The notes beneath the pieces are model-generated. The model made no database searches. It saw nothing but the letters and a program-made list of their open reading frames with translations, and was not told where the DNA came from. DNA of 64,000 bases from Escherichia coli (GTDB lineage Bacteria > Pseudomonadota > Gammaproteobacteria > Enterobacterales > Enterobacteriaceae): NCBI RefSeq assembly GCF_036507355.1, contig NZ_AP027877.1. One strand, 5' to 3'. Below are positions 3,852-63,647 of the stretch, piece by piece (within the stretch, counting starts at the first letter, position 1; the number at the start of each line of letters is the position of its first letter). The translations under genes and the position numbers were made by a program.

Positions 3852-6527
3852 ATGGCTGTTACTAATGTCGCTGAACTTAACGCACTCGTAGAGCGTGTAA
3901 AAAAAGCCCAGCGTGAATATGCCAGTTTCACTCAAGAGCAAGTAGACAAAATCTTCCGCGCCGCCGCTCTGGCTGCTGCAGATGCTCGAATCCCACTCGC
4001 GAAAATGGCCGTTGCCGAATCCGGCATGGGTATCGTCGAAGATAAAGTGATCAAAAACCACTTTGCTTCTGAATATATCTACAACGCCTATAAAGATGAA
4101 AAAACCTGTGGTGTTCTGTCTGAAGACGACACTTTTGGTACCATCACTATCGCTGAACCAATCGGTATTATTTGCGGTATCGTTCCGACCACTAACCCGA
4201 CTTCAACTGCTATCTTCAAATCGCTGATCAGTCTGAAGACCCGTAACGCCATTATCTTCTCCCCGCACCCGCGTGCAAAAGATGCCACCAACAAAGCGGC
4301 TGATATCGTTCTGCAGGCTGCTATCGCTGCCGGTGCTCCGAAAGATCTGATCGGCTGGATCGATCAACCTTCTGTTGAACTTTCTAACGCACTGATGCAC
4401 CACCCAGACATCAACCTGATCCTCGCGACTGGTGGTCCGGGCATGGTTAAAGCCGCATACAGCTCCGGTAAACCAGCTATCGGTGTAGGCGCGGGTAACA
4501 CTCCAGTTGTTATTGATGAAACTGCTGATATCAAACGTGCAGTTGCATCTGTACTGATGTCCAAAACCTTCGACAACGGCGTAATCTGTGCTTCTGAACA
4601 GTCTGTTGTTGTTGTTGACTCTGTTTATGACGCAGTACGTGAACGTTTCGCAACCCACGGCGGCTATCTGTTGCAGGGTAAAGAGCTGAAAGCTGTTCAG
4701 GACGTTATCCTGAAAAACGGTGCGCTGAACGCGGCTATCGTAGGTCAGCCAGCCTATAAAATTGCTGAACTGGCAGGCTTCTCTGTACCAGAAAACACCA
4801 AGATTCTGATCGGTGAAGTGACCGTTGTTGATGAAAGCGAACCGTTCGCACATGAAAAACTGTCCCCGACTCTGGCAATGTACCGCGCTAAAGATTTCGA
4901 AGACGCGGTAGAAAAAGCAGAGAAACTGGTTGCTATGGGTGGTATTGGTCATACCTCTTGCCTGTACACTGACCAGGATAACCAACCGGCTCGCGTTTCT
5001 TACTTCGGTCAGAAAATGAAAACGGCTCGTATCCTGATTAACACCCCGGCTTCTCAGGGTGGTATCGGTGACCTGTATAACTTCAAACTCGCACCTTCCC
5101 TGACTCTGGGTTGTGGTTCCTGGGGTGGTAACTCCATCTCTGAAAACGTTGGTCCGAAACACCTGATCAACAAGAAAACCGTTGCTAAGCGAGCTGAAAA
5201 CATGTTGTGGCACAAACTTCCGAAATCTATCTACTTCCGCCGTGGCTCCCTGCCAATCGCGCTGGATGAAGTGATTACTGATGGCCACAAACGTGCGCTC
5301 ATCGTGACTGACCGCTTCCTGTTCAACAATGGTTATGCTGATCAGATCACTTCCGTACTGAAAGCAGCAGGCGTTGAAACTGAAGTCTTCTTCGAAGTAG
5401 AAGCGGACCCGACCCTGAGCATCGTTCGTAAAGGTGCAGAACTGGCAAACTCCTTCAAACCAGACGTGATTATCGCGCTGGGTGGTGGTTCCCCGATGGA
5501 CGCCGCGAAGATCATGTGGGTTATGTACGAACATCCGGAAACTCACTTCGAAGAGCTGGCGCTGCGCTTTATGGATATCCGTAAACGTATCTACAAGTTC
5601 CCGAAAATGGGCGTGAAAGCGAAAATGATTGCTGTCACCACCACTTCTGGTACAGGTTCTGAAGTCACTCCGTTTGCGGTTGTAACTGACGACGCTACTG
5701 GTCAGAAATACCCGCTGGCGGACTATGCGCTGACCCCGGATATGGCGATTGTCGACGCCAACCTGGTTATGGACATGCCGAAGTCCCTGTGTGCTTTCGG
5801 TGGTCTGGACGCAGTAACTCACGCCATGGAAGCTTATGTTTCTGTACTGGCATCTGAGTTCTCTGATGGTCAGGCTCTGCAGGCACTGAAACTGCTGAAA
5901 GAATATCTGCCAGCGTCCTACCACGAAGGGTCTAAAAATCCGGTAGCGCGTGAACGTGTTCACAGTGCAGCGACTATCGCGGGTATCGCGTTTGCGAACG
6001 CCTTCCTGGGTGTATGTCACTCAATGGCGCACAAACTGGGTTCCCAGTTCCATATTCCGCACGGTCTGGCAAACGCCCTGCTGATTTGTAACGTTATTCG
6101 CTACAATGCGAACGACAACCCGACCAAGCAGACTGCATTCAGCCAGTATGACCGTCCGCAGGCTCGCCGTCGTTATGCTGAAATTGCCGACCACCTGGGT
6201 CTGAGCGCACCGGGCGACCGTACTGCTGCTAAGATCGAGAAACTGCTGGCATGGCTGGAAACGCTGAAGGCTGAACTGGGTATTCCGAAATCTATCCGTG
6301 AAGCTGGCGTTCAGGAAGCAGACTTCCTGGCGAACGTGGATAAACTGTCTGAAGATGCATTCGATGACCAGTGCACCGGCGCTAACCCGCGTTACCCGCT
6401 GATCTCCGAGCTGAAACAGATTCTGCTGGATACCTACTACGGTCGTGATTATGTAGAAGGTGAAACTGCAGCGAAAAAAGAAGCCGCTCCGGCTAAAGCT
6501 GAGAAAAAAGCGAAAAAATCCGCTTAA
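3852..6527 (+). CDS. adhE: Bifunctional acetaldehyde-CoA/alcohol dehydrogenase AdhE
   Basis: 891-aa [29 protein letters not shown]... with N-terminal aldehyde dehydrogenase and C-terminal Fe-ADH domains; strong RBS AGGAGA upstream. Confidence 0.97.
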
Positions 6528-6568
6528 TCAGTAGCGCTGTCTGGCAACATAAACGGCCCCTTCTGGGG

Positions 6569-7994
6569 TAATGCCAGTCAGTTAAGCAACTGACTGGCTC
6601 TTTTTCGGGGCTGTGGGGTATTTCCAGGGCCTCTCCTTTGCCACTCTCGGGAAGGCCCTTTCCCTTCTTGTCGGTAATTTCACAAGTTGTCCCATACTTG
6701 CAAGATCGCGCATCAGCTCCGGTATACGTCCCGGTGAAGCGCCCTGCAATGTCATCAGCATTCTCATCACCATTCCGCATGATTCTGAGAAGCTCAGTTG
6801 ATTTGGCCAGTAACCTTTCAGATGTTCCGCCATTTTAATCATCTGATATCTCACCAGATTATAAGCCAGTAAGACACCCCACAGCTCTTGCTCCACAAGC
6901 TCAGGCTTTTTACTTCTCAGCGTCAGCCTACTCAGTTGCATCGTCTGTTTTATCTCCCTGTATCCCAGTTCGATTTCCCAGCGATGACTGTACAGATCCG
7001 CCATTTCTCCTCCGGGGAAGCGCATGGCGTCCGTCATCGACGTCAGCAGATGGCAGACTTTTCCTTTGCGCGTCACGGTCAGCAGGCGGGCTGTCACCTC
7101 ATTTCCCAGTCCCGGCCACTTTTTTCGTGCCTGCGGGCTGGTTTTCAGCTTCACCAGATGATCGCCTTTACCCAGTTTTCTGATCTCTTCATATTGCGCT
7201 CCCTTTCTGAGAGGGATCATCCAGTGGCGGTGTTCTCCCGCCAGGCTCCAGGCATTTAACAATCCCAGTGAGTAATAACCTTTATCCATTAACGTCAGAG
7301 TGTTATCGCCGGTTTGTTCTATAAGTTGCTCAGCAAGCTCATTTTCGCTGTTCTTCATCGTGCCGAAGGCTGCAGCCGTCAGCAGATGGCTGGTCAGTTC
7401 CATCTGGCAGACCATTTTGACCTGCGGGTAGAGCGCCGGGGTCCCGGCATGTGTCTGGCGAGGGAAGGCTGCATCGTTCTCTGGTGTATCCGGTGTGCGC
7501 CAGAACACACCATCGATGGCCAGCAGGGTCAGGCCGCACCAGTGCGGATGCGGCGTGGCGTTATGCCAGAGCTGCGCTGTTTTCGTGAACACGCGGCGGA
7601 CAGCCTCACTTCCCAGGCGCTGGCGGGCCTGAATAACAGCACTGGGGGCAACGAAGGGGCGATTGCCCGGCAGCATGATGTCCAGGCGATTCACAATCTG
7701 GTGAAGAGGTTCTTTACGCTCAAGCGCCATGCCAACAATACACCAGACCATCATTTCGAGGGGAAGACGGCGCTTGCGTAGCGTTACAGTACCTGATTCG
7801 GCAAGGCAACGAGAGATGAGTTCGGGGTCGAGGTAATCCCCCAGAGAAGTCAGTGGGTTACGCAGAGAATCGTAACGGGATACCAGATCAAGAGCCTGTC
7901 CAATGTGCATAAAAAAATCCGGAAACGAGTGAGCGTTTCCGGATTCTTACACAGCCACTGGATCGGTCAACTGATCCTTAACTGATCGGCATTA
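6569..7994 (-). mobile_element. IS4 insertion sequence (1426 bp), apparently intact, flanked by 12-bp target-site duplication CCCCTTCTGGGG
   Basis: Terminal inverted repeats TAATGCC(A/G)(G/A)TCAGTTAAG at both ends; direct repeat ccccttctgggg at 6557-6568 and 7995-8006; encloses full 442-aa IS4-family transposase. Confidence 0.85.
6582..7910 (-). CDS. insG: IS4 transposase (InsG-like, DDE, IS4 family)
   Basis: 442-aa [53 protein letters not shown]... with YREIK motif region ([14 protein letters not shown]) typical of IS4-family transposases. Confidence 0.85.
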
Positions 7995-8016
7995 CCCCTT
8001 CTGGGGCCGTTTTTTT
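7995..8016 (+). terminator. Distal half of adhE rho-independent terminator (hairpin split by IS4)
   Basis: Reconstructing the pre-insertion sequence gives aaacggccccttctggggccgttttttt: GC stem plus T-run directly after adhE stop; IS4 sits inside the loop/stem. Confidence 0.6.
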
Positions 8017-8266
8017 GTTTTCCTAAAGCAACTATTCCATAAACCGACAGCATTAGCCTTCATCATAATTGCAGCGATGTATAACGCCTAAACACAGGGA
8101 TATTGTACTTTACAGGTCACAAGTCAACGTCGGTGCTTAAGAGCCCTGTGAGGCGTATAGCGGCGTTAAAAAACTGCCGAGAAGGGTGTATAGCCCGGAA
8201 GAAGTGCGTAAAACGAACTGACAGGATAAAAACGCCCTGCTCACCCTGTCAGTAAAGAAATTCTTA

Positions 8267-8884
8267 TTAATCGTGGCGATGCCTTTCCTGAATAGCCGTT
8301 AATGAGCCGACTTCTAACGCCTCTTTATAGTGTTTACGGCATACAGAAACGTAACGTTCATTACCACCAATAACCACCTGCTCACCTTCGTTATAAGGTC
8401 TGCCTGCTTGATCAAGACGCAGCACCATGCTTGCTTTACGGCCACAAAAACAGATGGTTTTTAATTCAACCAGTTTGTCGGACCATGCCAGTAAGTATTG
8501 GCTACCAATAAATAATTCACCTCGAAAATCGGTACGTAAACCATAACAAAGTACGGGTATATCGAGTTGATCGACAACCTCCGATAATTCATATACTTGT
8601 TGTCTGGTTAAAAACTGGCATTCATCAACCAGTACGCAATGAATTGCCTGCTGTTCATGTTCCGCACGAATCTCGGCAAATAATGATGAATTTTGGTTAA
8701 ATAATTTTGCAGGCGATGACAAACCTATACGCGAGCTGACTTTCCCGGCACCAAAGCGATCATCAATTTCTGCCGTATATACGACAGTGCGCATGCCGCG
8801 TTCCTGGTAATTGTATGAAGATTGCAACAATGCTGTAGACTTACCCGCATTCATTGCGGAATAGTAGAAATATAGCTGTGCCAT
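8267..8884 (-). CDS. tdk: Thymidine kinase
   Basis: 205-aa [33 protein letters not shown]... with P-loop GKST. Confidence 0.95.
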
Positions 8885-31841: not shown

Positions 31842-32043
31842 CTCATGAAACGACTGTAACAGCTGTTGAAAAACCGGAATGCACTCTTCATTGCAAACAT
31901 TTCAGGGATGAAGTGAAGATGAATTGAGTCGTAGTATCCACACCAAGCCGGCGTTATCCGGTGAGGCGCAATGTTGCGGGGGCTTTATCCCTGGTGGCAT
32001 TGGTTGCTGGAAAGAGAAAACCCCCGCACGTTGAGAGGTACAA
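31842..32043 (+). repeat. LDR unit 2, 5' half (ldr promoter/leader and rdl region), truncated by IS insertion
   Basis: Near-identical to 31297-31500 up to ...cacgttgagaggta, where the IS3-family left end begins. Confidence 0.8.
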
Positions 32044-32061
32044 TGAATCGCCACGGATAAT

Positions 32062-32874
32062 CTAGACACTTCCGAGCCGTTGATAATACTGGTTTTCATA
32101 TTCTGTCGGTGACATCTGATCGCTGGAACCATGCCGACGCTTACTGTTATAAAACATTTCGATGTAATCAAAAATATCGCTGCGGGCTTCTTCCCGCGTT
32201 CCGTAGATCTTTTTCTTTATCCGTTCGCGTTTCAACAACTGGAAAAAGCTTTCTGCAACCGCATTATCATGGCAGTTACCGCGACGGCTCATGCTGCCAT
32301 CCAGGCCGTGTGATTTCAGGAACGACTGCCACTCATGGCTTGTGTACTGACTGCCCTGATCCGAATGAACCAGCACCTGTTTTTGGGGATTACGGCGCCA
32401 TACAGCCATCAGCAGTGCGTTCAGGACAATGTCCTTTGTCATCCGGGATTGCATGGACCAGCCGATAATTTTGCGTGAGAACAGATCAACAACCACGGCA
32501 AGATACAGCCAGCCTTCGTGGGTCCTGATGTAGGTTATGTCCGTTACCCAACGCTTATCCGGAGCATCCGGATTGAACTGTCGCTGGAGCCTGTTGGGCG
32601 ACACGATACTGGCCTCGCCTTTACGTGCCCGCGGGCTCCGGTATCCGACCTGAGCCTTTATCCCGACACGTTTCATCAGTCGCCAGACTCTGTTCACTCC
32701 GCACTGTTGCCCGCTGTCCCGCAGATCCAGATGGATTTTGCGATAACCATAGACGCATCCCGATTCCAGCCAGAACTGTTTAATCTGCCCTGTCAGCCTC
32801 AGGTCTGCCTGATGGCGTTGTGAATGCGGCTGCTGAAGCCAGGCGTAAAAACCACTGGGATGAACATCCAGCAC
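32062..32874 (-). CDS. IS3-family transposase OrfB (DDE integrase domain), expressed by -1 frameshift from OrfA
   Basis: Contains WVTDITY...HSDQGSQYTS...GNCHDNAVAESFF DDE catalytic region typical of IS3-family OrfB. Confidence 0.8.
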   Translation of the reverse strand: MLDVHPSGFYAWLQQPHSQRHQADLRLTGQIKQFWLESGCVYGYRKIHLDLRDSGQQCGVNRVWRLMKRVGIKAQVGYRSPRARKGEASIVSPNRLQRQFNPDAPDKRWVTDITYIRTHEGWLYLAVVVDLFSRKIIGWSMQSRMTKDIVLNALLMAVWRRNPQKQVLVHSDQGSQYTSHEWQSFLKSHGLDGSMSRRGNCHDNAVAESFFQLLKRERIKKKIYGTREEARSDIFDYIEMFYNSKRRHGSSDQMSPTEYENQYYQRLGSV

Positions 32875-32930
32875 CCGACAGAGCAGGCGAACAGGCCAGC
32901 AACAGGTGTTGTCACGGATAAAGGCGTACC

Positions 32931-33215
32931 TCAGTCGGACAGCTTTGCGAAGTACGCCGCGGCTTTTTTTAATATGTCCCGTTCGTCGGTAACCCGCTTC
33001 AGCTCTTTCTGGAGACGGCGGATCTCGGCCTGAGCATCTGACTGTTCTTTATTAGCGGAAGAATCCGGACCGTACTTCTTTATCCAGGCGTAAAGGCTGT
33101 GGGTGGTGATATCGAGACGTGTTGCAACGCTGGCAACAGAATAACCGCGATCAACAACCTGTTTGACTGCTTCAATTTTAAACTCTTCGGGATAACGCTT
33201 ACCGCTCATGGGCAC
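32931..33215 (-). CDS. IS3-family transposase OrfA (HTH, leucine zipper)
   Basis: 94-aa ORF MPMSGKRYPEEFKIEAVKQVVDRGYSVASVATRLDITTHSLYAWIKKYG...RDILKKAAAYFAKLSD. Confidence 0.8.
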   Translation of the reverse strand: MPMSGKRYPEEFKIEAVKQVVDRGYSVASVATRLDITTHSLYAWIKKYGPDSSANKEQSDAQAEIRRLQKELKRVTDERDILKKAAAYFAKLSD

Positions 33216-33272
33216 CTCTCTTTAAGCCATCTTAAATGACTCTGAGGTGTCTGTTAAACCCGTGGCGATTCA

Positions 33273-45998: not shown

Positions 45999-46042
45999 AT
46001 TTCATGATGTCTCAAATCATCCCGTAAGAGCGCTGTCAAAAA

Positions 46043-46094
46043 TGAGTACATGAATGAGTACAACATTCTTCCATCTTCATTTTAAGTGAGTACA
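46043..46094 (+). promoter_or_regulatory. Three direct copies of TGAGTACA (46043, 46055, 46087) upstream of int; candidate integrase arm-type or regulatory sites
   Basis: Exact 8-mer repeated three times within 52 bp, 35-85 bp upstream of the int start codon. Confidence 0.35.
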
Positions 46095-46126
46095 ATAACG
46101 GTATAATAAATAAACAAGGCCCCGTT

Positions 46127-47320
46127 ATGCTCACTGATACACAATGCCGCACTGCCAAACCGAAAGAAAAACTCTATCGACTCAATGATTTCAACGGTCT
46201 CTACCTCGAAGTGAAACCCAATGGTAAAAAGGCTTGGCGTTATCGGTTTAAGCTCAACGGTAAATCCAGCATGTTTGCGCTAGGTGAGTACCCGACGGTC
46301 AAGCTTGCCGAGGCTCGAGAAAAATGCGAGCAAGCGCGAAAGCAGGTTGCGGAAGGAGTCAACCCAGCGCAAGCTCGTCAGTTAGATAAGATTCGTAAGG
46401 TTAACGACGCATCCAACACCTTTGAGCTGATCGCCAAAGAGTGGCTGCAGATGAAAGACTGGGCCGAAATTACCAAAACACGCCGACTGGATATGCTTGA
46501 ACGTGTGGTTTTCCCCTCAATCGGTAAGCTTCCAGTCAGAGAGATCACCCCACACCATATCCTTAAAATTCTTCAGGAAACTGCCAAACGAGGAGCACCG
46601 ACAGTTGCCGCAGAAGCCCGTCGCACCATTTCATCAGTTTTCGAGTTGGCTGTGGCAACGCTTAGAGCTGATAGCGATCCTGTCTGGCCTGTACGCAAGG
46701 CACTTCCGGCGAATAAGACACAGCACAAACAGGCATTGAATCCACAGCAAATCGGGAAGCTATTAAGCTGTTTTGATAACAGTCGCGGCTCATATCAGGT
46801 TAACTATTGCATGTGGCTAATGTGGTGGACGCTGGCGCGACCAGCCGAAGTCACCGAGGCAGAGTGGGCAGAGTTCGATCTTGGTAACGCACTGTGGACC
46901 ATTCCGGCAAGGCGTATGAAAGCTCGTAGGGAACATGTTATTCCCCTTCCTTCCCAAGCCGTCAACATGCTCAAAACACTACAAGGATTAACCGGGCATA
47001 GGCAGCATCTTTTTCCGGGCAGGGATAATCCGCTAGGCCCAATGACATCGCACTCTCTGCGTCAACTACTTAAAAGCCTCGGATGGAATGGCACTTATAG
47101 CCCCCATGCTACCAGAACTACAGGAAGTACGCGTTTAAACGAAATGGGCTATCGACCTGATGCTATTGAGGCCCAACTTGCGCACGCTGATACCAACAAT
47201 GTTCGTCGCACATACAACCATGCAACTTATCTTGATGAGCGAAAGGTTATGATGCAAGACTGGGCAGATAAACTTGAAGGATGGGTAGGAAGCACACACA
47301 GCAATATTGATGTTTCGTAA
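46127..47320 (+). CDS. int: P4-type tyrosine integrase (island integrase)
   Basis: 397-aa ORF with the N-terminal arm-binding-like region typical of P4-family integrases and a C-terminal catalytic region ...HSLRQLLKSLGWNGTYSPHATRTTGSTRLNEMGYRPDAIEAQLAHADTNNVRRTYNHATY (R..H..R..Y). Confidence 0.85.
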   Translation: MLTDTQCRTAKPKEKLYRLNDFNGLYLEVKPNGKKAWRYRFKLNGKSSMFALGEYPTVKLAEAREKCEQARKQVAEGVNPAQARQLDKIRKVNDASNTFELIAKEWLQMKDWAEITKTRRLDMLERVVFPSIGKLPVREITPHHILKILQETAKRGAPTVAAEARRTISSVFELAVATLRADSDPVWPVRKALPANKTQHKQALNPQQIGKLLSCFDNSRGSYQVNYCMWLMWWTLARPAEVTEAEWAEFDLGNALWTIPARRMKARREHVIPLPSQAVNMLKTLQGLTGHRQHLFPGRDNPLGPMTSHSLRQLLKSLGWNGTYSPHATRTTGSTRLNEMGYRPDAIEAQLAHADTNNVRRTYNHATYLDERKVMMQDWADKLEGWVGSTHSNIDVS

Positions 47321-47719
47321 GTCATGATACATTGGTGTGTTCATACTGATTATTAAAGATTATTTTCCACCACAATATAAAAACCACGCTTTAGCCTATA
47401 TATTAGTAACCATCTGATTTAACTAATAATGTTTGCTATACTGATCCTGCATTATACTCCCTCTGTTTTTCCATCCCTCTAATAACATAGGACATATCCA
47501 TGCGCTGATATCATGTATCCAGCAGTGAAGCCAGTATGAGAAAGACTCTGGCGAACGAGTTTTGGCTGATAAGCTGGGGATCGCTAGTTCTGATAAGATG
47601 GATGAAGCTGAACTTGTCCTGTTAGAACAACTCTACCAGTCCGTTTTTGAAGAACAGTTCCCGTAAAGACAGCTCAGCATAGCCATGCTAAAAAGCTGGC
47701 ATCCCCGCAGGGGTGGTAA

Positions 47720-49888
<2,169 letters not shown>

Positions 49889-49949
49889 CTAAGCATCACA
49901 GTGGCAGGTCGACAGGGACAAACCTGTGAGTCTGCAGGCTCGACGTTGT

Positions 49950-50290
49950 GACAGAAACAATCGCATCACACATCAACACCACAGCTTCCCGCTTCTGGTC
50001 TGTCGTCAATACTTTCGCCCAAGAACCACCTGAAGCGCCTGAAGCGCCTCCTTATCCGGCATGGCTTCAGCAAGCAGCTTCTTTGAGTCTGGCGTTCTCT
50101 TCCTCAAGCGACTCCAGGTGCTTAACCTCAAGCACCGCCATACTTCTTATGCTATGTGTAAAGAGTGGCATCGGAAATAGCGTGCTTGCAGCAGAGCTCA
50201 CGGGCAGAAACTCCAGCTTCTGCTTCACGGAGAACGCTGATTATCTGTTCGTCGGAAAAACGCTTCTTCATGGGAATCATATTCGGCGTC
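49950..50290 (-). pseudogene. IS3-family OrfA remnant (truncated, internal stop)
   Basis: Minus-strand translation from 50279 gives MIPMKKRFSDEQIISVLREAEAGVSARELCCKHAISDATLYT then a stop, with ...LKSLEEENARLKKLLAEAM... continuing out of frame; no cognate OrfB follows. Confidence 0.55.
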
Positions 50291-50450
50291 AGGGTCAATA
50301 TAAAGGCATTACTAGCATCGGGATGTACTAATCAACGGAGAGCAAGATCACATCCCTAACAGTATGACCAGATAAGCTATTCATAGTAAAAAAATATATC
50401 CACTAACCATCTAGAAGATAAGTCATGATTTTCACGGTAATGACTCCAAC

Positions 50451-50954
50451 TTATTGATAGTGTTTTATGTTCAGATAATGCCCGATGACTTTGTCATGCA
50501 GCTCCACCGATTTTGAGAACGACAGCGACTTCCGTCCCAGCCGTGCCAGGTGCTGCCTCAGATTCAGGTTATGCCGCTCAATTCGCTGCGTATATCGCTT
50601 GCTGATTACGTGCAGCTTTCCCTTCAGGCGGGATTCATACAGCGGCCAGCCATCCGTCATCCATATCACCACGTCAAAGGGTGACAGCAGGCTCATAAGA
50701 CGCCCCAGCGTCGCCATAGTGCGTTCACCGAATACGTGCGCAACAACCGTCTTCCGGAGCCTGTCATACGCGTAAAACAGCCAGCGCTGGCGCGATTTAG
50801 CCCCGACGTATCCCCACTGTTCGTCCATTTCCGCGCAGACGATGACGTCACTGCCCGGCTGTATGCGCGAGGTTACCGACTGCGGCCTGAGTTTTTTAAA
50901 TGGCGGAAAATCGTGTTGAGGCCAACGCCAATAATGCGTGCACTGGCGCGACAT
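50451..50954 (-). CDS. insB: IS1 transposase InsB (produced as InsAB fusion by frameshift)
   Basis: 167-aa [53 protein letters not shown]... Confidence 0.9.
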
Positions 50955-51148
50955 CCGACGCCATTCATGGCCATATCAATGATTTTCTGGTGCGTACCGG
51001 GTTGAGAAGCGGTGTAAGTGAACTGCAGTTGCCATGTTTTACGGCAGTGAGAGCAGAGATAGCGCTGATGTCCGGCAGTGCTTTTGCCGTTACGCACCAC
51101 CCCGTCAGTAGCTGAACAGGTGGGACAGCTGATAGAAACAGAAGCCAC
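50873..51148 (-). CDS. insA: IS1 protein InsA
   Basis: 91-aa [46 protein letters not shown]... Confidence 0.9.
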
Positions 51149-51504
51149 TGGAGCACCTCAAAAACACCATCATACACTAAATCAGTAAGTTGGCAGCATC
51201 ACCTAAGTCTTGAGCCATTATTTCTATAAAATACATGTTAAATCATATTAGAATAGTTTATACGATAATTCGCTTGAAGAAGAAAAACACTATTCTAATT
51301 CAAACATTTTATATTATCAAGAACCATGGTAATTACAGTTAATTTACAGTATCAGTGATGTGGTTTCCAAAAAAGTATGCCCAAACATTTAAATATATGC
51401 CTTCGATAAATGAACTTTAACTCATCAGAATGACTACCCATCAATACTATTGAGTATATGAAGACAATTCACAGTCCCATCTGGCGAATTTTTCAGATGG
51501 CGAG

Positions 51505-54500
51505 TTAAATATCTTCTGGTGATTCCCCCAGATACATCTTACGGTAATGATACACTTCAAAGAATTTCCCCTTGTCTTTGTAACTACTGATAAAGTAGCA
51601 ATGTGTTAAATACTTTAGCAGGATCTCATTACCTTCAGTTTTGTGAACTTTTGCTCGTTTGGTTTTATCCGCAATCAAATTATATTCTTCCGACACGAAG
51701 GCCATAAGCGCACGATTGATGTATTCAAAAGGCAGTTCTTCACACTCTAAAAGATGATTCAAAAACACAAGTCGAGTGTCATCTTCCGAAACATTAAGAA
51801 GGAGTGCTATACTGACTTTACTATTTAGGCTTATATGGTCGAAGAAACTATTGGTATAGTGCGGCCAGAGAACATTGATGATTGAAACTTTAGTCGTCAA
51901 CTCTATATCGTCATCATTGAGCACAAGCTCAATAAGTTCATTATCGAAATCTTCGTCATCTTGCAGATAAAACTCAATATTATTTTCAAAAACAGCAAGG
52001 TTGTTTCTAATCATAAGCGACAGACACTCATTGAGGCCCTTGCGACGTTGTCCCTCATAAATGCTGAGTACGTCTTCATAGAGCGCTTCTGACAGCAAAA
52101 CTCTGTTGCTCTCACAAAGTGCTTTAAATTTTGTCAGTGGCAGGTCACTGATTACCTTGTCGATACTTACAGGCAGCACGCTGATCAACTGTGCATATAA
52201 CGCGTCTGGCTTATCCGCTGCTGAAATGATGTGATTCACAACATTATCAATAGACTCCTCAGGAACACTGACCTTATGGCCTGAAAGCACCTCTGGATGG
52301 TGAGCAAAAAACGCCCACAATATCTCATCGTCGACATCGGTATACATGTAGTTAAATATGTTATCCCAGTTGGCAGCGACACGCCCATGTTTAAACAAGA
52401 GGTCATAAACAGTGAATGACGCACCCTCAACTACCGATAGCCTGATATTTTCAACTGTCGACAACTGCTGAACTTCAAAATCCATGTTTTCAATTATAAT
52501 TTCTTTGGAACGCTCAGTAGCGTCTGAATTAATTAGTGAAATAACGGATCCAACGCTTTCCTCAGAATGAATGAAATATTCCACAATAAACATCTCAAGG
52601 TTTGTATTTACAGCCTCAATTAAGCATGGGACTTTTTCACTCATAATTAAGGTATATGGATTGCGCGATAGTTCCTCAACATTCTTTCTGTTATTAGAGT
52701 ACGCATTAAACAGTGCAGTGAGGTTATTAATATTAAATACATACAGAAAATTCTCTGCGATAAACTTCACCAACGTACGTTCACTTTCATCGTTAGCTTC
52801 ATTGACGCTATCGAATACAATATTGAGCTCTTTTAATTTTATGCTGAATGACGCAATCTCATCGGGTCGTATGTATGTAAACAACGTAGTGTCTGTTTTT
52901 AATTCATGCAGATAATCCTGAACAGCACTTTGTCGGGTAATGTTTTCTATCAGACCAAAACGAAGTAATGACACAAATAACTGCTGATAAAAATCATCAT
53001 CAGAGTCAATGTCACGGTAAGTACTCATCGCCGCCATCAATTTACCCAATGTCTTTTCATCGCTTAAAATTAAATTAATTAAGTCATGATAGTCATCATT
53101 ACTAAATTCATAAAAATACGTCCGCATAGTGCGAATGATTAAGCCATGTGAGCAATAATTAAATAAATGAATAAAAACATCACGGGCAAAACCAGCTCGG
53201 CAGTTGATCAAAAAGCTAATTATATGCGGATGAAAAATCCCCTCGTAATATTTAAATGATAGCGACTCCATTTTATCTACAACATTGGAAACGTTATTCA
53301 GATGAATATCTTTTAACTCCTCAAAATTCACCTTAGCAGCGACCTTCTGGATATAAACATTATCTGATTTACTTAATGCACCTGCATGGAAGATAGAGCG
53401 ATATTGCATGTAATCCTGCTCAATATATCCATTTGACAACATGAAAAACAACAATTCCATATTGAAATTAATCGCTGAAGGCTTGGATGCATTTTTATTT
53501 CCCTTATCGTCAGTTGATGCAACATTAAGCAACCACTCACTCAATTTCGCTAAGGTTATTTTTTCACATAATTCATGAAGTGATAGGCCATTTCGTTGAT
53601 TAAGAACACGCTGTGTGTTTAAAATATTTTTAGATAATTGCTCAACGGTTTTTTGGTTCTTATCTAAAATAACTGGTGAGCGTTTGTTATATTCACGTAA
53701 ACTCTCAGCTCGCTTATTATGTGGAATTTGGAAGGTATCTTGATATTCATACCCGTTTCTTGAATATGTGATAGCTATTCCGGATGGAAGCTCTCTGTTC
53801 AGAAAATCACAAAACAATGATTCATCCCCACAAAGTTCAACAAAGCTCCAGCTACTCCCAACTTGCCCATACTTATTATGGCTTATATAAAACACTGTAT
53901 TCGATTCAATTTGTTCAGGAAGATAACGCCTTAGAATTTCAACCCTCAGATTTAAACTGGATGTTTGCAATTCCTTTTGTACTTTCACCAACTTTTCTTT
54001 CTGCTGAGAAATCTTTATTTCCAAATCTTTAAAATACACGTCATGTAGCGTTCTCTTAGAGTAAGCATTAACTATTCTGTATAAAAAACCATCCTGATTA
54101 TCAAGCAGAGTGAAATCTTTGGTACATAAATTTTTATACATTATCAAAGAAAATAACTTCACATCAGAAATCTCACCCGTAATTAATTTTTTAAAAATAT
54201 TAAATTCATTTATAACATTATTCATCACCCGCATATCAGTCAGGTAAAGGGATACTTTCTTGAAAAACTGCTCTTTATCTACCGAATTAAAGTTTATAAC
54301 TTTACTACTTAATATGTCATACGCATTCTCACTATCTACTGCAGGTATAATCGGCACAATAAAATCAAAAAATTTTGTTTGTGATTCAGCATCCTTTAAT
54401 AAATCCTCCCTGACTGCAAAAATAAATTTAATCGGTTTCTTTTCCAATAGTCTGGAATTGTTTATCACTTGATTTATTTCACGGAGCTTAATAAAAATAT

Positions 54501-55407
54501 GACCATTGTTTAAACGGTCTAAATCTTCAAATACGACAACTCTATACTTTGTTTTAAGGAAGAAGTAAACAATCTCATCAATATACAAATTTAGCAGAGA
54601 AGCTGTATTCTGTTTTTCCGCCGCAATTTCTGCCTTTAAGAGATTTACTTTATCAAGAGCAATTTTTCTGTCAAAAAATCCTATCCGATAAAAACGAGAC
54701 AGCAGATACCAACAAATGATAAATGATAGCGAACCGATACATCCCCAACGCCATACCGGATGTATCGCAATGAAATGACTCACCGCTGACGGTAATGAAA
54801 ACGTGTTGATAATTTTTTGAGGAAACAACAATGTAGTGACAACGATTGTCAGTATGAGAACAAAAAACAGCAAACAGGATGTTATTAGTATTTGCCCAAC
54901 ACTTCGGGTGTGAATGCGCTCTACCCGCGAATCTGGCAGCGTACCTTTATCCACTTTGTATAAAATCTGCTGTAATATGCTGTATTCAATGCTTTGTTCT
55001 TTTGATAAAGACTCGGAACTTTTTAGTGTCTCATCCGTTTCAAAGTTTGCCAGTGAGATAATCACGTGCTCATCCGCTGGTTTTAAACTTGTAAACCTGA
55101 GCCAATATTTCAGGCGGTGCCACAACCGCTTTCGCCCTTCAATTTTTTTAAGGTATGAGAGAATAACCGAGCTTTTACCCGCGCCATAGGACCCCGTGAT
55201 GGCGATGTTCTTCACATCATCCCGGCTGAGGGCATAATCCAACGCCTTAAAATAGGGTTGATATCCCTCTTTATCAGGATCGACAATCGGTGTTAGCGTT
55301 TGGAATTCCCTTTCCGTTCCTGAATTGTTTTCTGAAGTAACCTGAAGCCTTGCGACTGTTTTATGCAACCAGTCTGCGATCGTTTTCAACCCGAAAGACA
55401 GCGCCAT
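51505..55407 (-). CDS. Large (1300 aa) KAP/YobI-like P-loop NTPase with transmembrane hairpin inserted between Walker A and Walker B; long C-terminal region of unknown function. Candidate defence/conflict protein
   Basis: Walker A ITGSYGAGKSSV (about aa 70-81), two hydrophobic helices (about aa 171-195 ILITSCLLFFVLILTIVVTTLLF and 215-236 HPVWRWGCIGSLSFIICWYLL), Walker B-like VVVFEDLDR (about aa 290-298); Lys/Asn/Ile/Phe-rich composition; gene is conspicuously AT-rich versus flanks. Confidence 0.75.
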   Translation of the reverse strand: MALSFGLKTIADWLHKTVARLQVTSENNSGTEREFQTLTPIVDPDKEGYQPYFKALDYALSRDDVKNIAITGSYGAGKSSVILSYLKKIEGRKRLWHRLKYWLRFTSLKPADEHVIISLANFETDETLKSSESLSKEQSIEYSILQQILYKVDKGTLPDSRVERIHTRSVGQILITSCLLFFVLILTIVVTTLLFPQKIINTFSLPSAVSHFIAIHPVWRWGCIGSLSFIICWYLLSRFYRIGFFDRKIALDKVNLLKAEIAAEKQNTASLLNLYIDEIVYFFLKTKYRVVVFEDLDRLNNGHIFIKLREINQVINNSRLLEKKPIKFIFAVREDLLKDAESQTKFFDFIVPIIPAVDSENAYDILSSKVINFNSVDKEQFFKKVSLYLTDMRVMNNVINEFNIFKKLITGEISDVKLFSLIMYKNLCTKDFTLLDNQDGFLYRIVNAYSKRTLHDVYFKDLEIKISQQKEKLVKVQKELQTSSLNLRVEILRRYLPEQIESNTVFYISHNKYGQVGSSWSFVELCGDESLFCDFLNRELPSGIAITYSRNGYEYQDTFQIPHNKRAESLREYNKRSPVILDKNQKTVEQLSKNILNTQRVLNQRNGLSLHELCEKITLAKLSEWLLNVASTDDKGNKNASKPSAINFNMELLFFMLSNGYIEQDYMQYRSIFHAGALSKSDNVYIQKVAAKVNFEELKDIHLNNVSNVVDKMESLSFKYYEGIFHPHIISFLINCRAGFARDVFIHLFNYCSHGLIIRTMRTYFYEFSNDDYHDLINLILSDEKTLGKLMAAMSTYRDIDSDDDFYQQLFVSLLRFGLIENITRQSAVQDYLHELKTDTTLFTYIRPDEIASFSIKLKELNIVFDSVNEANDESERTLVKFIAENFLYVFNINNLTALFNAYSNNRKNVEELSRNPYTLIMSEKVPCLIEAVNTNLEMFIVEYFIHSEESVGSVISLINSDATERSKEIIIENMDFEVQQLSTVENIRLSVVEGASFTVYDLLFKHGRVAANWDNIFNYMYTDVDDEILWAFFAHHPEVLSGHKVSVPEESIDNVVNHIISAADKPDALYAQLISVLPVSIDKVISDLPLTKFKALCESNRVLLSEALYEDVLSIYEGQRRKGLNECLSLMIRNNLAVFENNIEFYLQDDEDFDNELIELVLNDDDIELTTKVSIINVLWPHYTNSFFDHISLNSKVSIALLLNVSEDDTRLVFLNHLLECEELPFEYINRALMAFVSEEYNLIADKTKRAKVHKTEGNEILLKYLTHCYFISSYKDKGKFFEVYHYRKMYLGESPEDI

Positions 55408-55668
55408 TGAGTGTCCTCACAATCACGAATATTAAATTCATAAATTGGAGACAATCCTAACATGAATCAAAAGAATCATCACACAATCATGTAGTTAAAA
55501 GAACAAGCTGGAACCTGATTTTTTATAGCATTTTCACGCAGCACAGTTTTTGCCCACGATAGTATCACCGGATTACGCTCACTCAAGATCAAGCTTATCG
55601 TACACCCGCACTACATATCAGCTACACCCATCACCGTAACCGAGTCCCATCGATATTCACTGACTAGT

Positions 55669-55713
55669 GTTGATACACCCATATAGATATATATACCCAT
55701 TGAGTGTATCAAC
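55669..55713. promoter_or_regulatory. Inverted repeat GTTGATACAC-N25-GTGTATCAAC upstream of the NTPase gene
   Basis: Perfect 10-bp arms at 55669-55678 and 55704-55713 flanking an AT-rich spacer (atatagatatatat); lies between the putative rep gene stop and the NTPase start. Confidence 0.35.
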
Positions 55714-55765
55714 TGATGGATTACATGCGTCTAAACGCTTATAGACATCCTGTCTTATGGACAAA

Positions 55766-56638
55766 CTACTTACGGGTTCTCACCCCAGAGGTAAATGTCA
55801 GTCCAGTAAACCCCATCTCATCCTGCTTACATAACGCCCGTGCCAACAGAACAGGCGGCAGCCTGTGTTTGGGGGTACGGCGTTTTCCTGCCTCATCAGG
55901 ATAAGGTCTTACTTCCAGCCACATCCCCTTGAAGCAGTATGTTACCTGCTCGTCAAAATCCTTCAGCTTCTGGCTTTTCATCGGCCGACTGATTATCCCC
56001 GCTCTGGCCCGCATATTTTTATCCCTCTTCATCGCCTTTCTTAGCGTTTTGAGCGCCCCCGGCTCTCTCGGCATCAGTAGATGCAGGTGAGGCATCCAGC
56101 GCTGGATATCGGTGTGAAAATCCAACTCGTAGTCACCCACTATTTTGCCCGTAAATCCGGCTCTTTTTATCATCTTGTAGACCCGCTCCCGGAACTTCTT
56201 ATGATCCCAGCGGCTGATCTCGTCTTCTTTCAGCATGGCATCGTAATAAACCAGCGTAACCACTCTGTACGCGCCCTTAGAGGCCCTCAGTGGGAGCAAT
56301 TCAGTCAGCTTACGTAACCTGTGCAGGCGGAAACACTGTGGGCAGGCCGCGCTACCACATTGATGTTCTGGCATACAGCCCTCCAGTTTTCTCTTTAACC
56401 GAAACATCCGCCCTCGCCACTTTTTGTGTGCTTTTCTGACTTCTTTGCTCTCATCCTGATTATCATTCCTGTTCTGCCGCACAGCCTTTCGTATTGCTTT
56501 TATGCGGTACAGGCGTTCCTTCTCCATTTGCTCCCGGGTTTCAAAACCCGGAATGGTAAGAGCTAACTTTTCCAGTTGGCGCTCTTCTTCTGTCAGTGAT
56601 GCATACACTGCTCGCGCAATACGGTTTGTACCAAACAT
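55766..56638 (-). CDS. Putative HUH-type replication initiation protein (inovirus Gp2-like), island-encoded
   Basis: Contains HLHLL (His-hydrophobic-His) motif in WMPHLHLLMPREP and a Cys cluster CGSAACPQC; start placed at Met 56638 directly after the alpA stop (track ORF overlaps alpA by 50 bp). Confidence 0.45.
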   Translation of the reverse strand: MFGTNRIARAVYASLTEEERQLEKLALTIPGFETREQMEKERLYRIKAIRKAVRQNRNDNQDESKEVRKAHKKWRGRMFRLKRKLEGCMPEHQCGSAACPQCFRLHRLRKLTELLPLRASKGAYRVVTLVYYDAMLKEDEISRWDHKKFRERVYKMIKRAGFTGKIVGDYELDFHTDIQRWMPHLHLLMPREPGALKTLRKAMKRDKNMRARAGIISRPMKSQKLKDFDEQVTYCFKGMWLEVRPYPDEAGKRRTPKHRLPPVLLARALCKQDEMGFTGLTFTSGVRTRK

Positions 56639-56639
56639 A

Positions 56640-56834
56640 TCAGCAACCTCCTCTGGTCCCACGGGAAGCAATCCACTCATTGACTTCACTTTCCAGCCAG
56701 GCCACCGCTCGTCCTCCTGTCAGGGATTTTTGGCGTGGGAAAGTCCCTTTTTCAATCATCCGGTACAGTGTGGCGCGGCTCACCGCACAGCGTTCCAGCA
56801 CAGCCTGAATTTTGACCAGTTTCATATCATTCAT
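56640..56834 (-). CDS. alpA: AlpA-family phage/island transcriptional regulator (MerR-like HTH)
   Basis: 64-aa ORF MNDMKLVKIQAVLERCAVSRATLYRMIEKGTFPRQKSLTGGRAVAWLESEVNEWIASR, the AlpA signature. Confidence 0.8.
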   Translation of the reverse strand: MNDMKLVKIQAVLERCAVSRATLYRMIEKGTFPRQKSLTGGRAVAWLESEVNEWIASRGTRGGC

Positions 56835-56941
56835 GTTTCAACGTTCCTCAACAAGGAAAGGGAACGCGCTATTAACAAGATCCAAAATCGGGGCTCTGTG
56901 AGGGGGGGGTTGGGACGTCTACTGGCTCGTTTCATACCTAT

Positions 56942-57547
56942 TTGTCGGGCCGACACTTTATGTCCATTGTCGGTCCGACAAAAGAGTCGTTAGAATGCTC
57001 AAAAATGAATGCATCAACGGGAGTTCGCGTGACAGGAAAAAGGCAGACCAGCCGCCAGAAACGGTCAGATAAAATGAGGAAAAATGCAGGATTGACTCAA
57101 GTGAAGGTTTACCTGGATGAAACCACTCTGCAGTTACTGGGGTTACTTCAGGAAAATATGTCAGAAGGTGATATGAAGGGTGATGAGGTCAATATGTTCC
57201 GTAGCATGGCTATAACGGCCAGTATCCACACCCTGGCAAAAGAACGACTGGGGGAACAAGAAGTATCGCATATGGTGATCAAGAACCTCGGTGCTGACTG
57301 CCCATCCGACGAAGCGACAGAAAACCCACGTAAGTTTCTTCTCCGGACGATGATTAACCACCTGTATGATAATGGCACACACAATCCGCACCGCCGTCGA
57401 TTGTCAGAAGTGGCTGGAATTATGAATGAAAGCAGTTTCAGGAACCCGAAGAACAAAAAAGGGGGATGGAGTGAAAATGATATCAGTCACTATGTCAGCA
57501 ATGACATAAAACTGGAAAATGATACCTCGGTTGATGTACCGGGCTAA
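56942..57547 (+). CDS. Hypothetical protein divergent from alpA; possible ribbon-helix-helix regulator (start uncertain)
   Basis: Internal segment MRKNAGLTQVKVYLDETTLQLLGLL resembles an RHH beta-strand/helix; real start may be one of the internal Met codons (about 57005 or 57074). Confidence 0.35.
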   Translation: MSGRHFMSIVGPTKESLECSKMNASTGVRVTGKRQTSRQKRSDKMRKNAGLTQVKVYLDETTLQLLGLLQENMSEGDMKGDEVNMFRSMAITASIHTLAKERLGEQEVSHMVIKNLGADCPSDEATENPRKFLLRTMINHLYDNGTHNPHRRRLSEVAGIMNESSFRNPKNKKGGWSENDISHYVSNDIKLENDTSVDVPG

Positions 57548-57760
57548 GCAAATCTATACACCAATATATTTATCTCTGGAATACCCTGGTCGGGGAGCAC
57601 GAATTAGTTATTCATCAGGGGTGGTGAGTTGGTCGTGCTTTCCCGGAAGGCAGGTGCGCCAACGCCAGTACTTGGTATACCTGTGGGCTATCAAAAATAG
57701 TCTCTGGCCCCGTTTGATGGTTTTAACCAACAGGCTGCGGTGGTCATCCCCCATGAAAGC

Positions 57761-58708
57761 TTACCAGCAACATAGCGCCCTGGAGGCTCTGTCTACAGCC
57801 TGCCTGCCCCTACAGTCATAGCGTGTGGTCGTGGATATATCCGCATGTCCTGCCAACTGGCGCACCACATTAATGTCCACTCCCTGCTCCAGCAGGCGGG
57901 TGATGAATGTCCGTCGCAGGTCGTGGGGGGTGAAGTAATCCACTTCTGCAGCTTCGCGTAACTGCGCCAACAGCCCTGTAAGACCCGTGGTGGTAAGCCG
58001 TTGTCGTCCTGGCTGCCCCGCACGACTGATGCGACTGAACAGCGGCCCGGCATGATACCCCCGGAGCTTCAGCCATCGCCGCAGTTGCATGCAGACTTTT
58101 CCGGAAAGGTGGATTTCCCGGATTTTGCGCCCCTTTCCCTGCCTGACAATCACGATCCCCGTGGCTACATCTATATCTCCCACGTCCAGGGCTACCAGTT
58201 CGGCGGCACGCAGACCTGCGCCACACAGAAGCAGCAAAATAGCCCGATTACGCTGGCAACGTACAGCGTCAGCCTTTCCGGCCGCCGCCAGCATGGCCCG
58301 AATTTCGGTCCTGTCCAACGCCCTGCCCAAGCGGGTGGCACTGCCAGTGACACGCCTGACTGAACGTATGCGCGTCAGTCTGTCAGCATCCAGAATCCCC
58401 ATACTGAAAGCCGCTCCGGCAACCGATTTCAGCGCCGACAGCGCCATGTTCACCGTGGCAACAGCATAGCCCTCATCCAGCAGCACCGAGCGTACCCGCA
58501 TCACGCTCGTGTAGTCCAACGTATGCCAGGGGTAGGTGTCGGGCTTCGCCCCCGGACGGAGGATACCGGCACATCGTCGGAGTAAGCTTTGCATCCCCCT
58601 GCGCCCGGCTGGCGTCAGGCTTGCCAGCCACAGCAATGCTGGGTTGATGGAGAGGGCATTTTGCGGGTGGACAGATGCCGCGCGTTTACCATTGCGGCTC
58701 GTGGTCAT
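57761..58708 (-). CDS. Tyrosine-type site-specific recombinase (XerC/XerD-like), GC-rich
   Basis: 315-aa ORF with catalytic region ...FTPHDLRRTFITRLLEQGVDINVVRQLAGHADISTTTRYD (R..H..R..Y) and LCGAGLRAAELVALDVGDID box; visibly GC-richer than neighbouring island genes. Confidence 0.7.
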   Translation of the reverse strand: MTTSRNGKRAASVHPQNALSINPALLWLASLTPAGRRGMQSLLRRCAGILRPGAKPDTYPWHTLDYTSVMRVRSVLLDEGYAVATVNMALSALKSVAGAAFSMGILDADRLTRIRSVRRVTGSATRLGRALDRTEIRAMLAAAGKADAVRCQRNRAILLLLCGAGLRAAELVALDVGDIDVATGIVIVRQGKGRKIREIHLSGKVCMQLRRWLKLRGYHAGPLFSRISRAGQPGRQRLTTTGLTGLLAQLREAAEVDYFTPHDLRRTFITRLLEQGVDINVVRQLAGHADISTTTRYDCRGRQAVDRASRALCCW

Positions 58709-58784
58709 AATATCATCCTTATTATTGATAGTGGGATATCCCGGTCAGGTCTGACCGGGAGTGAGGGTTAATATGTCTTCGTAG

Positions 58785-59405
58785 TCAGCGTTTTTTCACA
58801 CCATAATGCTGAAGGTAGCGATTCAGGCTCCGACCAGCGCCAGTCTCAAAATTCCATGTCCGCCAGATAAGCTGCCCCACTGTGTCGCGTATCACCAACC
58901 GGAAGTGGGTATGCAGGTCATCCTCAATGGCGACATTTTTATACGTCGCAACCACAGCCTCTGCTTCCAAACGAGTAAACGAATCTGGGGGCAGTTGTGG
59001 CGTCTGTATTGTGGGCTCTGGTGCTGCGCGGTCAGGACGTGAATGCCGTCCCTGTGTGATGTGACTGACGGCTTGGTAACTGCTCTGCCTCAGAAGTCCG
59101 GTGGTCTTCCTTGCCCGGAGAATATCAATGGAGGTAATGTGCGGAGACTGGGGGATAAAGCTGACATTACCCTGGTCTGTACGTACCAGGTCGTACTTTT
59201 CAACAATAGAATTCAGGGCCTCCGTCAGTGATATCTCTGCATCAATGTATGCCTGAATGGCACCTTTCCCGCTAAACGGCGTGTCGCTGAGAGTGAGTCC
59301 GTAGTGCTTCTCCAGCAAGTAAGCCAGCAGAGTGTGCCAGACATCAGCAGGGGACAGGCAACACGATAGTGTCCGATTTGGTGAGACCGGTTGTTTTTTC
59401 ATCAC
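58785..59405 (-). CDS. CbtA/YeeV-family type IV toxin homolog with about 80-aa C-terminal extension
   Basis: First ~125 aa align by eye to CbtA (..[35 protein letters not shown]..); ORF continues to 206 aa. Confidence 0.65.
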
Positions 59406-59511
59406 TGTATTCTCGCGGATAACATTGAAAAAGACGCGCGAACGTGAACATCAATTGAACGTCCGCACTTATTGGAATCCGTCGGCCAGACGGGCAAAAA
59501 GTGACTTCCAT

Positions 59512-59895
59512 CTACTGTCCCGAAGACCGGGAAGCCATGGGATAAATGGCGATATATACGTAGCCACAGGAGCCGAGCGTGTTAGCCTCGCAGATCAGCC
59601 CTTCTACCTGTAGCGTGATCCCCTTCGCCCTGCGCGGGTCCAGTTCACCGGACAGCAGAATGCTTTCCATCTGCCTCATGAGCAGCGGAAATATCTGGTC
59701 CAGATGGCGTGCGTCTCTGTCGCTGAACGTACCGGTGAATTCAGCCCGGTCAGCCAGAAAATGCAGGCAGCCGCCCTCCTGCACCAGACGCGCCCCGAAG
59801 CATGGCGTCACGTTGCACTGTAGCCCCCACAGATCTGTGGGTGGCGTATCGTAGTCTTTCAGATCTGTCATGTCAGGTGTCCTCAAAAGTCGCAC
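59512..59895 (-). CDS. CbeA/YeeU-family antitoxin homolog
   Basis: 127-aa ORF with ..LWGLQCNVTPCFGARLVQEGGCLHFLADRA..HLDQIFPLLMRQ..SGELDPRR.. matching the CbeA family pattern; immediately upstream of the toxin. Confidence 0.7.
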   Translation of the reverse strand: MRLLRTPDMTDLKDYDTPPTDLWGLQCNVTPCFGARLVQEGGCLHFLADRAEFTGTFSDRDARHLDQIFPLLMRQMESILLSGELDPRRAKGITLQVEGLICEANTLGSCGYVYIAIYPMASRSSGQ

Positions 59896-59931
59896 TGCCA
59901 GTGCATCAATCTGGCAATGCTGGGTAGTTCT

Positions 59932-60369: not shown

Positions 60370-60454
60370 AACCTCAGTGTTTACAGTTTAAAAAAACGTG
60401 AAGGGATAAAGCGGACGTGTCTTAGCGTGGATAATGTGTATTAAACCAGGTAAC

Positions 60455-60943: not shown

Positions 60944-60965
60944 GATGTACTCCTTACCTTTTAGT

Positions 60966-61589: not shown

Positions 61590-61665
61590 TGTATAAATTA
61601 TAACAAAATCAATACATTAATGCAAGTGATTCTTGTTATCACTTATCCAGCGACTCCTTCACTTG

Positions 61666-62046: not shown

Positions 62047-62077
62047 AAAATTTCACCTCTTATCAAAGCGTTAGTTA

Positions 62078-63272
<1,195 letters not shown>

Positions 63273-63416
63273 CTAAATGAGCGCAAATAACCACAAAAGG
63301 AACTTGATAACTTCCCTTTGTTTGCTTTTAATATCTCCGGTACTAACAACCCGGAGTGAATACATTGAGTAACTCAACAGATTCGCAAAAAAAAGCGAAG
63401 TAAGGGAAGTGCTGTT

Positions 63417-63635: not shown

Positions 63636-63647
63636 AGAAAGCATGTT

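Follow-up and report, generated by a model that had tools for sequence, protein, structure and literature searches.

An intact IS4 copy within the predicted intrinsic terminator of adhE in Escherichia coli, and the terminators carried by IS4-family elements

The spacer between the convergent genes adhE and tdk contains an intact copy of IS4, which is flanked by a 12-bp target duplication and splits the predicted intrinsic terminator of adhE. It was found in what we call the window, namely the whole 64,000-nucleotide stretch of Escherichia coli DNA that was analysed. Within it, sequence comparison placed IS4 at positions 6569-7994 (1426 bp), its transposase being encoded on the minus strand. 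Upstream of it, and with its terminator divided, lies adhE (3852-6527, plus strand, 891 aa), which was identified from the open reading frames and the annotation of matching E. coli records; tdk (8267-8884, minus strand, 205 aa) faces adhE from the other side of the element. We consider it very probable that this arrangement arose by ordinary IS4 transposition into a preferred target, and that the native adhE terminator was thereby destroyed and replaced by inward-reading terminators borne by IS4 itself. The insertion is correct as observed but ordinary: IS4, its target preference and its presence between adhE and tdk are already known or annotated. What is mildly new is that IS4-family elements would put a terminator of their own in place of the one they destroy, and that a single hairpin serves as a species-wide hot spot for them.

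Identity of the inserted element

IS4 belongs to the IS4 family of elements with a DDE transposase and is presumed to move by a cut-and-paste route. An inverted-repeat search in the window delineated the two ends of the element as IRR, TAATGCCAGTCAGTTAAG (6569-6586), which faces adhE, and IRL (7977-7994; reverse complement TAATGCCGATCAGTTAAG), which faces tdk. As read from the sequence, these are imperfect repeats of 18 bp that match at 16 of the 18 positions. The transposase is encoded by a single open reading frame on the minus strand (6582-7910; 442 aa and a stop codon). It matches the Pfam profiles Nterm_IS4 (3.1e-33) and DDE_Tnp_1 (1.4e-31), scores 304 bits against the NCBIfam model NF033592, for which the cut-off is 115, and upon alignment with InsG retains the complete Y(2)R(3)E(6)K motif as Y307-R310-E314-K321.

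The IS4 copy of E. coli K-12 (insG, b4278; NC_000913.3 4502090-4503515) has the same 1426 bp, the same terminal repeats and likewise a 12-bp duplication, whereas its chromosomal site is yjgZ-nanX and that of the window element is adhE-tdk. The two differ at 15 positions (1411/1426 nucleotides identical, 98.9%), and the transposase is identical to InsG at 438 of 442 residues (99.1%), the four differences being N157T, G304A, R326L and V424A. The IS4 subgroup has been described as comprising elements of 1400-1650 bp, with ends of the form -AATR--------WTW and target duplications of 10-13 bp (PMC2266710, Table 1), and isoforms are defined by less than 2% amino-acid divergence (PMC2266710). The window element agrees with the subgroup in its DDE motif, size, ends and duplication length, and its near-identity to K-12 IS4 at both the nucleotide and the amino-acid level is that of an isoform. 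Thus, the window element is IS4 itself, and the original prediction of an intact IS4 with a 12-bp duplication is borne out by these identities and by the direct repeats described below.

The variant in the window is that of strains such as TUM13936 and JX21CE8 and differs from the K-12 variant; the IS4 copies of the closest E. coli genomes show only 3 differences from it. The occurrence of identical or near-identical IS4 copies at several sites in related genomes suggests, from the sequences, recent activity of the element.

The insertion divides the predicted adhE terminator

A direct-repeat search recovered exact copies of the 12-mer CCCCTTCTGGGG immediately outside both ends of IS4, the left copy at 6557-6568 and the right copy at 7995-8006, the latter being followed by CCG and a run of seven T. 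The chance of an exact 12-mer at both boundaries of the element is about 4^-12. On the plus strand, the left half of the native adhE terminator (6551-6568) consists of AAA, CGG and the left duplication copy, and the right half (7995-8016) consists of the other copy, CCG and the T7 tract. In the empty-site strains 08-00022 and T16R the 12-mer is found once, inside AAACGGCCCCTTCTGGGGCCGTTTTTTT, and the window without IS4 and one copy of the 12-mer equals this empty site base for base. Folding of the restored site gives a hairpin (-15.5 kcal/mol) with a G+C-rich stem of 7 bp and a loop of 4 nt; A:U pairs lengthen the stem, and U7 comes directly after it. The hairpin lies 27 nt past the adhE stop codon in both the restored and the real empty site, and in both it has the structure of an intrinsic terminator. 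The 12-mer is therefore a true target duplication and IS4 splits the predicted intrinsic terminator of adhE. It had been claimed beforehand that removal of the element would restore a terminator hairpin, and the empty-site sequence and its folding agree with this; the contrary case named at the time, a 12-mer present twice in strains lacking the element, was checked, and only a single copy was encountered in both empty-site strains.

The split is symmetric about the dyad of the hairpin and leaves a mini-hairpin at each end of the element, so that folding of the remnants also confirms the anticipated partial hairpin on either side. The left remnant, which is the one on the adhE side, folds at -9.5 kcal/mol and is without a U-tract; given these properties, it should not terminate transcription.

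Occupancy of the adhE-tdk site in complete E. coli genomes

We surveyed the site in 5426 complete RefSeq genomes of E. coli using four coverage-based searches with a coverage cut-off of 80%. The resulting classes, which follow from this cut-off rather than from genome-by-genome inspection and sum to 5413, comprise 2206 genomes with an empty site (40.7%), 1884 with ISZ, the related element of K-12 (34.7%), 1134 with IS4 in the orientation opposite to that of the window (20.9%) and 189 with IS4 oriented as in the window (3.5%). The opposite orientation is represented by full-length IS4 in 112 genomes (2.1%) and, in about 1022 genomes (18.8%), by a frameshifted relic that has lost 281 bp and is 97.7% identical. 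An IS4-family element or relic thus occupies the adhE hairpin in about 59% of complete E. coli genomes. Given the 80% coverage threshold and the clonally biased collection of genomes, all these shares express prevalence and not counts of events. Regardless of site, 2686 of the 5426 genomes contain IS4, the median copy number being one. RefSeq annotates IS4 or its relics between adhE and tdk in thousands of genomes, and the importance of the observation for the window itself is accordingly small. The five states of the spacer could serve as a lineage marker.

The window has no exact match among the complete RefSeq E. coli genomes, the best being 99.3% identical over 21.7 kb. JX21CE8 carries the window variant of IS4 (3 differences) at the same site and in the same orientation. 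In TUM13936 an IS4 identical to that of JX21CE8 occupies the same position, with the same 12-mer, but points the other way; a further copy in this genome, at the terminator of raiA-bamD, is identical to the one between adhE and tdk. WCHEC020031 has a K-12-like variant (14 differences) in the orientation of the window. These strain-specific variants and orientations indicate that the adhE hairpin was probably hit at least four or five times. At least four of the hits are apparently independent, namely those of ISZ, of the old IS4 with its deletion, and of modern IS4 in one and in the other orientation.

A different account of the two orientations would be the inversion in place of one inserted IS4. 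JX21CE8 and TUM13936, with identical IS4, site and 12-mer in opposite orientations, are what such an event would produce; the duplication and the surrounding stem provide short inverted repeats, and in the relic of strain 382634_2f the left duplication copy, CCCCATAAGGGG, resembles the reverse complement of the right one. However, the inverted homology outside IS4 amounts to only 4-7 bp, and the distinguishing bases 8-9 of the terminal repeats move with the whole element. Furthermore, the TUM13936 copy is identical to the second copy of its own genome, which is consistent with recent transposition, and a symmetric target is expected to accept the element in either orientation. We consider inversion in place an unlikely source of the two orientations, though not a negligible one.

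The relic of 382634_2f shows some further peculiarities. In the extracted locus of this strain (L004) its left duplication copy is at 834-845 and its right copy, which is CCCCTTCTGGGG, at 1991-2002; allowing for one change, the left loop looks like the right loop (AGAA) read on the complementary strand, and both terminal repeats have the 'AG' variant. We also noted that the spacer on the tdk side (window 8007-8400) is considerably more variable between strains, with 9-34 differences per 390 nt, than the adhE side, with only 1-4 per 390 nt. The haplotype of the window in the tdk-side spacer is closest to that of the empty-site strain 08-00022.

Terminators within IS4 and the predicted fate of adhE and tdk transcripts

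A terminator scan detected an inward-reading terminator in the right end of IS4 (6573-6605, plus strand; nucleotides 5-37 of the element), which consists of a perfect 11-bp stem with a 4-nt loop (-17.5 kcal/mol) followed by UCUUUUU. The right-end sequence of K-12 IS4 is identical to the window at 6569-6616, and from the sequence we predicted a 3' end near K-12 position 4502126(+) before the Term-seq tables were looked up. These tables list 3' ends at 4502126/4502127(+), corresponding to nucleotides 37/38 of IS4, in all three of the three conditions (Adams et al. 2021, PMC7815308, supplementary file 1). The right-end hairpin hence combines the structure, the U-tract and the in vivo 3' end of an intrinsic terminator, the last of these on the K-12 sequence and not in the context of adhE. 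Scores at this K-12 end are modest (1,000-2,500), and there is a Rho-dependent region beyond it, at 4502176(+) (PMC7815308). In light of the interrupted U-tract, the modest signal and the Rho-dependent region, termination at the right end may be partial.

A second hairpin, AATCCGGAAACG-CUCACU-CGUUUCCGGAUU with a U-run (7911-7945, minus strand), was recognized through an inverted repeat and folding directly upstream of the transposase ATG and folds at -16.8 kcal/mol. The terminator scan had missed it as the extension of the stem took up the T-run, and it was recovered by folding. We predict it to act as a terminator for transcription that enters the element from the tdk side. A promoter-like site within the left end of IS4 (TTGACC-16 nt-AAGAAT, TG-extended; 7943-7970, minus strand), found by a consensus scan only, overlaps this region. 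A transcript from this candidate promoter would start within the 5' arm of the hairpin and so would be made without that arm. On the far side, a scan detected a terminator-like hairpin with a U-tract for tdk (8210-8240, minus strand), about 57 nt past the tdk stop codon and with about 200 nt left before IS4; K-12 has a 3' end at 1294198(+) (PMC7815308), the homologous position, which is at about 8210 on the minus strand of the window.

The 3' end of adhE transcripts is thus predicted to shift by about 27 nt, to nucleotides 37/38 of IS4 (6605/6606), and discrete 3' ends are to be expected for adhE and tdk alike. The original prediction had pointed to an altered adhE 3' end and to extended read-through toward tdk. 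The former stands, as an expected move into the IS4 terminator about 27 nt further on that is backed by the K-12 Term-seq ends on an identical sequence, whereas the latter loses ground to the IS4-borne terminator and to the terminator of tdk itself about 200 nt short of the element. In its strongest form, read-through would mean that the insertion abolishes adhE termination, and that transcription continues antisense to the transposase toward tdk and alters the expression of adhE, the transposase or tdk. The native hairpin is indeed split and its remnant has no U-tract, and, judging by the Rho-dependent region inside K-12 IS4, some polymerases get past the hairpin at the right end. Against this reading stands the -17.5 kcal/mol hairpin with its UCUUUUU tract, 5-37 nt inside the element, for which the identical K-12 sequence has an in vivo 3' end. 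Rho termination follows that hairpin, and on the far side of IS4, at a distance of about 200 nt, tdk has a terminator of its own at which it ends. Read-through from adhE toward tdk is unlikely on this analysis, and abolished termination with altered expression of any of the three genes distinctly so.

Relationship of the K-12 element ISZ to IS4

It had been stated in the original prediction that K-12 carries only a degenerate IS4-like pseudogene at this spot, and that the window element may be its intact ancestor or an independent insertion. Such a pseudogene is present: K-12 ISZ, with insZ (b4573), sits in the loop of the same adhE hairpin. Its bounds were redefined from its inverted repeats and from the reconstruction of the empty site. 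The true ends are CAATGCC...GGCATTG, giving an element of 989 bp, and the target duplication is the 10-bp CCCTTCTGGG. The K-12 annotation of ISZ (NC_000913.3 1294426-1295405; 2927-3906 in the extracted K-12 locus L001; 980 bp) lacks 9 bp, CAATGCCGT, of the end that faces tdk.

ISZ ends in CAATG, whereas IS4 ends in TAATG, and in BLAST searches the nucleotide sequences of the two have only a 34-bp end in common. The ISZ frame shares 31% amino-acid identity with the IS4 transposase over the N-terminal 226 residues; insZ has an in-frame stop and lacks the transposase residues from about 244 to 390. Relative to adhE, ISZ is oriented opposite to the window IS4, and its duplication measures 10 bp as against 12 bp. 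An alignment of ISZ and IS4 with MAFFT was discarded, as its interior was meaningless and BLAST and the protein comparison were needed in its place. By these sequence comparisons ISZ is an independent and older insertion of a relative of IS4 and not a decayed version of the window element; of the two options that had been offered, it is the independent insertion, of a different IS4-family element, that fits. A single old insertion that stayed intact in the window and decayed to insZ in K-12 would account for the common hairpin and the shared 34-bp terminal sequence, but it has next to no chance of being right: the interior is without nucleotide similarity, the proteins are only 31% identical, the orientation is opposite and the duplication is of 10 rather than 12 bp, and with flanks that are about 99% identical there was too little time for such divergence at one insertion.

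Like IS4, ISZ has an inward-reading hairpin with a U-tract just before the start of its transposase, and in this case the hairpin coincides with a strong 3' end of K-12. The end in question, at 1295324(-), is very strong, with scores of 51,499-100,225 in all three conditions (PMC7815308). The hairpin CGGCTTCC-ACAACA-GGGAGCCG with its UUUUCUU tract immediately precedes this end, which falls 122 nt past the adhE stop codon and 81 nt into ISZ, with the insZ ATG 2 nt further on. RNA 3' ends can also come from processing. The split native hairpin of K-12 has no 3' end in the Term-seq tables, and the 1295324 end was classed by their authors as 'orphan', and not as that of adhE (PMC7815308). For annotation pipelines and for catalogues of 3' UTRs and terminators that are based on K-12, this means that the 3' end mapped downstream of adhE belongs to an IS relic and does not mark the ancestral terminator.

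Target preference of IS4

The sites of other IS4 copies in E. coli, including those at rpoD-mug (AAACGC-CACCTTTTCGGTG-GCGTTTTTT), raiA-bamD (AAACGG-CAGCTCAAGGGCTG-CCGTTTT) and hdhA-malI and in strain NCTC86 (AACCCC-CAGCCTAGCTG-GGGGTTTT), follow a common plan of an A-tract, a palindrome and a T-tract, with duplications of 11-14 bp. That the adhE-tdk spacer already had the two 12-mers in tandem, and that they are no product of transposition, can be dismissed with near certainty: the 12-mer is itself a small palindrome, of a sequence type able to recur, but empty sites hold exactly one copy and are recreated upon removing the element with one copy, the uninterrupted site is found in 2206 genomes, and other IS4 copies duplicate unrelated sequences of 11-14 bp.

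Beyond E. coli, the exact 22-nt left end of IS4 was sought in species-representative genomes, yielding 113 unique outside flanks from many Gammaproteobacteria. A run of at least four T starting 9-28 nt from the end of the element was seen in 73% of the 113 flanks against 7.8% of controls, and the top of a hairpin together with a T-run in 59% against 1.8%, the controls being random positions in the same contigs and not drawn from intergenic regions only. The frequency of T peaks at 0.81-0.85 at nucleotides 17-18 from the end, and the T7 tract of the window occupies nucleotides 16-22. Among complete copies with recognisable duplications (10-14 bp), the duplication was centred on the dyad of the hairpin in all 11 of 11, generally flanked by an A-tract and, on the opposite side, a T-tract. 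At the sampled sites the length of the duplication (10-14 bp) tracks the distance from the A-tract to the T-tract. The enrichment of the hairpin with T-run in the flanks (59% against 1.8%) indicates that IS4 homes to terminator hairpins, and being its standard choice of target, the precise hit in the adhE terminator is unremarkable.

Mayaux et al. reportedly described in 1984 an IS4 insertion in the attenuator terminator of pheST and the consensus AAA-N20-TTT; the target sites surveyed here agree with this consensus, from which the adhE site differs in being AAA-N18-TTT with a central palindrome. For the IS4 subgroup, repeats of 10-13 bp, a 'spectacular' specificity and strong conservation in both arms of the target have been reported (PMC2266710), and the adhE site and the other surveyed targets fit this description. 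Our literature search for IS4 or insZ at adhE-tdk and for IS4 in the pheS attenuator returned nothing relevant. IS1397, IS621, ISRm22 and IS200/IS605, which home to extragenic palindromes or lie behind terminators, resemble IS4 in targeting small intergenic hairpin-forming DNA; however, these have REP/BIME targets or other transposase chemistries, whereas IS4 targets unique terminators and splits them instead of landing beside them. The IS4 copy near bamD in E. coli 16F5M1D1 has no target duplication, and its two flanks derive from different terminator-like sites, that on the left being AAAAACGAGCCCCGAAGGGC. This mismatch suggests a rearrangement through recombination between two IS4 copies.

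A model for the insertion and its wider meaning

In the model that we favour, ordinary transposition into a preferred target, that target is a G+C-rich palindrome between an A-tract and a T-tract, in other words the DNA of an intrinsic terminator. The two strand transfers would have occurred symmetrically about the dyad of the hairpin, each at 3 bp from the AAA or the TTT tract on its inner side, and their spacing would have duplicated the loop and the upper four pairs of the stem (12 bp). The native adhE terminator would have been destroyed by this, but IS4 has a hairpin and U-tract that read inward just inside each of its ends. Transcripts of adhE would then end at nucleotides 37/38 of IS4, about 27 nt later than at the empty site, and the hairpin that directly precedes the transposase ATG would halt transcription arriving from the tdk side. 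As a short and conserved palindrome, the same hairpin has been hit repeatedly in E. coli, by the related ISZ as well as by IS4 in either orientation. Here we infer the efficiency of the terminators in the strain of the window, the logic of the transposase promoter and hairpin, and the recognition of the target by the transposase.

A broader proposition, to which we give an even chance, is that members of the IS4 subgroup are dedicated terminator-homing elements whose own inward terminators replace the one that they split, so that the insertion would be near-neutral for the genes on either side and the transposase shielded from outside transcription. If true, this would explain the IS4-family element or relic in the adhE hairpin of about 59% of genomes, as well as the strong K-12 3' end downstream of adhE inside ISZ. 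It would also explain the duplications of 10-14 bp, through each transposase subunit measuring from its own A- or T-tract arm. The strong preference of IS4 for terminator hairpins, combined with the terminators borne at its ends, offers a clean natural example of a low-cost 'safe-haven' strategy of insertion.

Other elements in the window

Beyond IS4, the window contains an IS3-family element of about 1.23 kb (32041-33271) in the ldr/rdl toxin-antitoxin repeat region. Its orfA (32931-33215) and orfB (32062-32874) are both on the minus strand, with an rve integrase core, and the element is absent from TUM13936, the closest complete genome. Colinearity with TUM13936 stops just after ychF, and the window from 46020 to 64000 is made up of an island. 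This contains a P4-type integrase (46127-47320) and a second integrase (57761-58708), along with fragments of IstB and rve, an IS1222-type frameshift element (49921-50039) and an IS1 transposase (50451-50954). It also encodes a YobI-like P-loop NTPase of 1300 aa (51505-55407), CbtA toxin/DUF905 and RadC.
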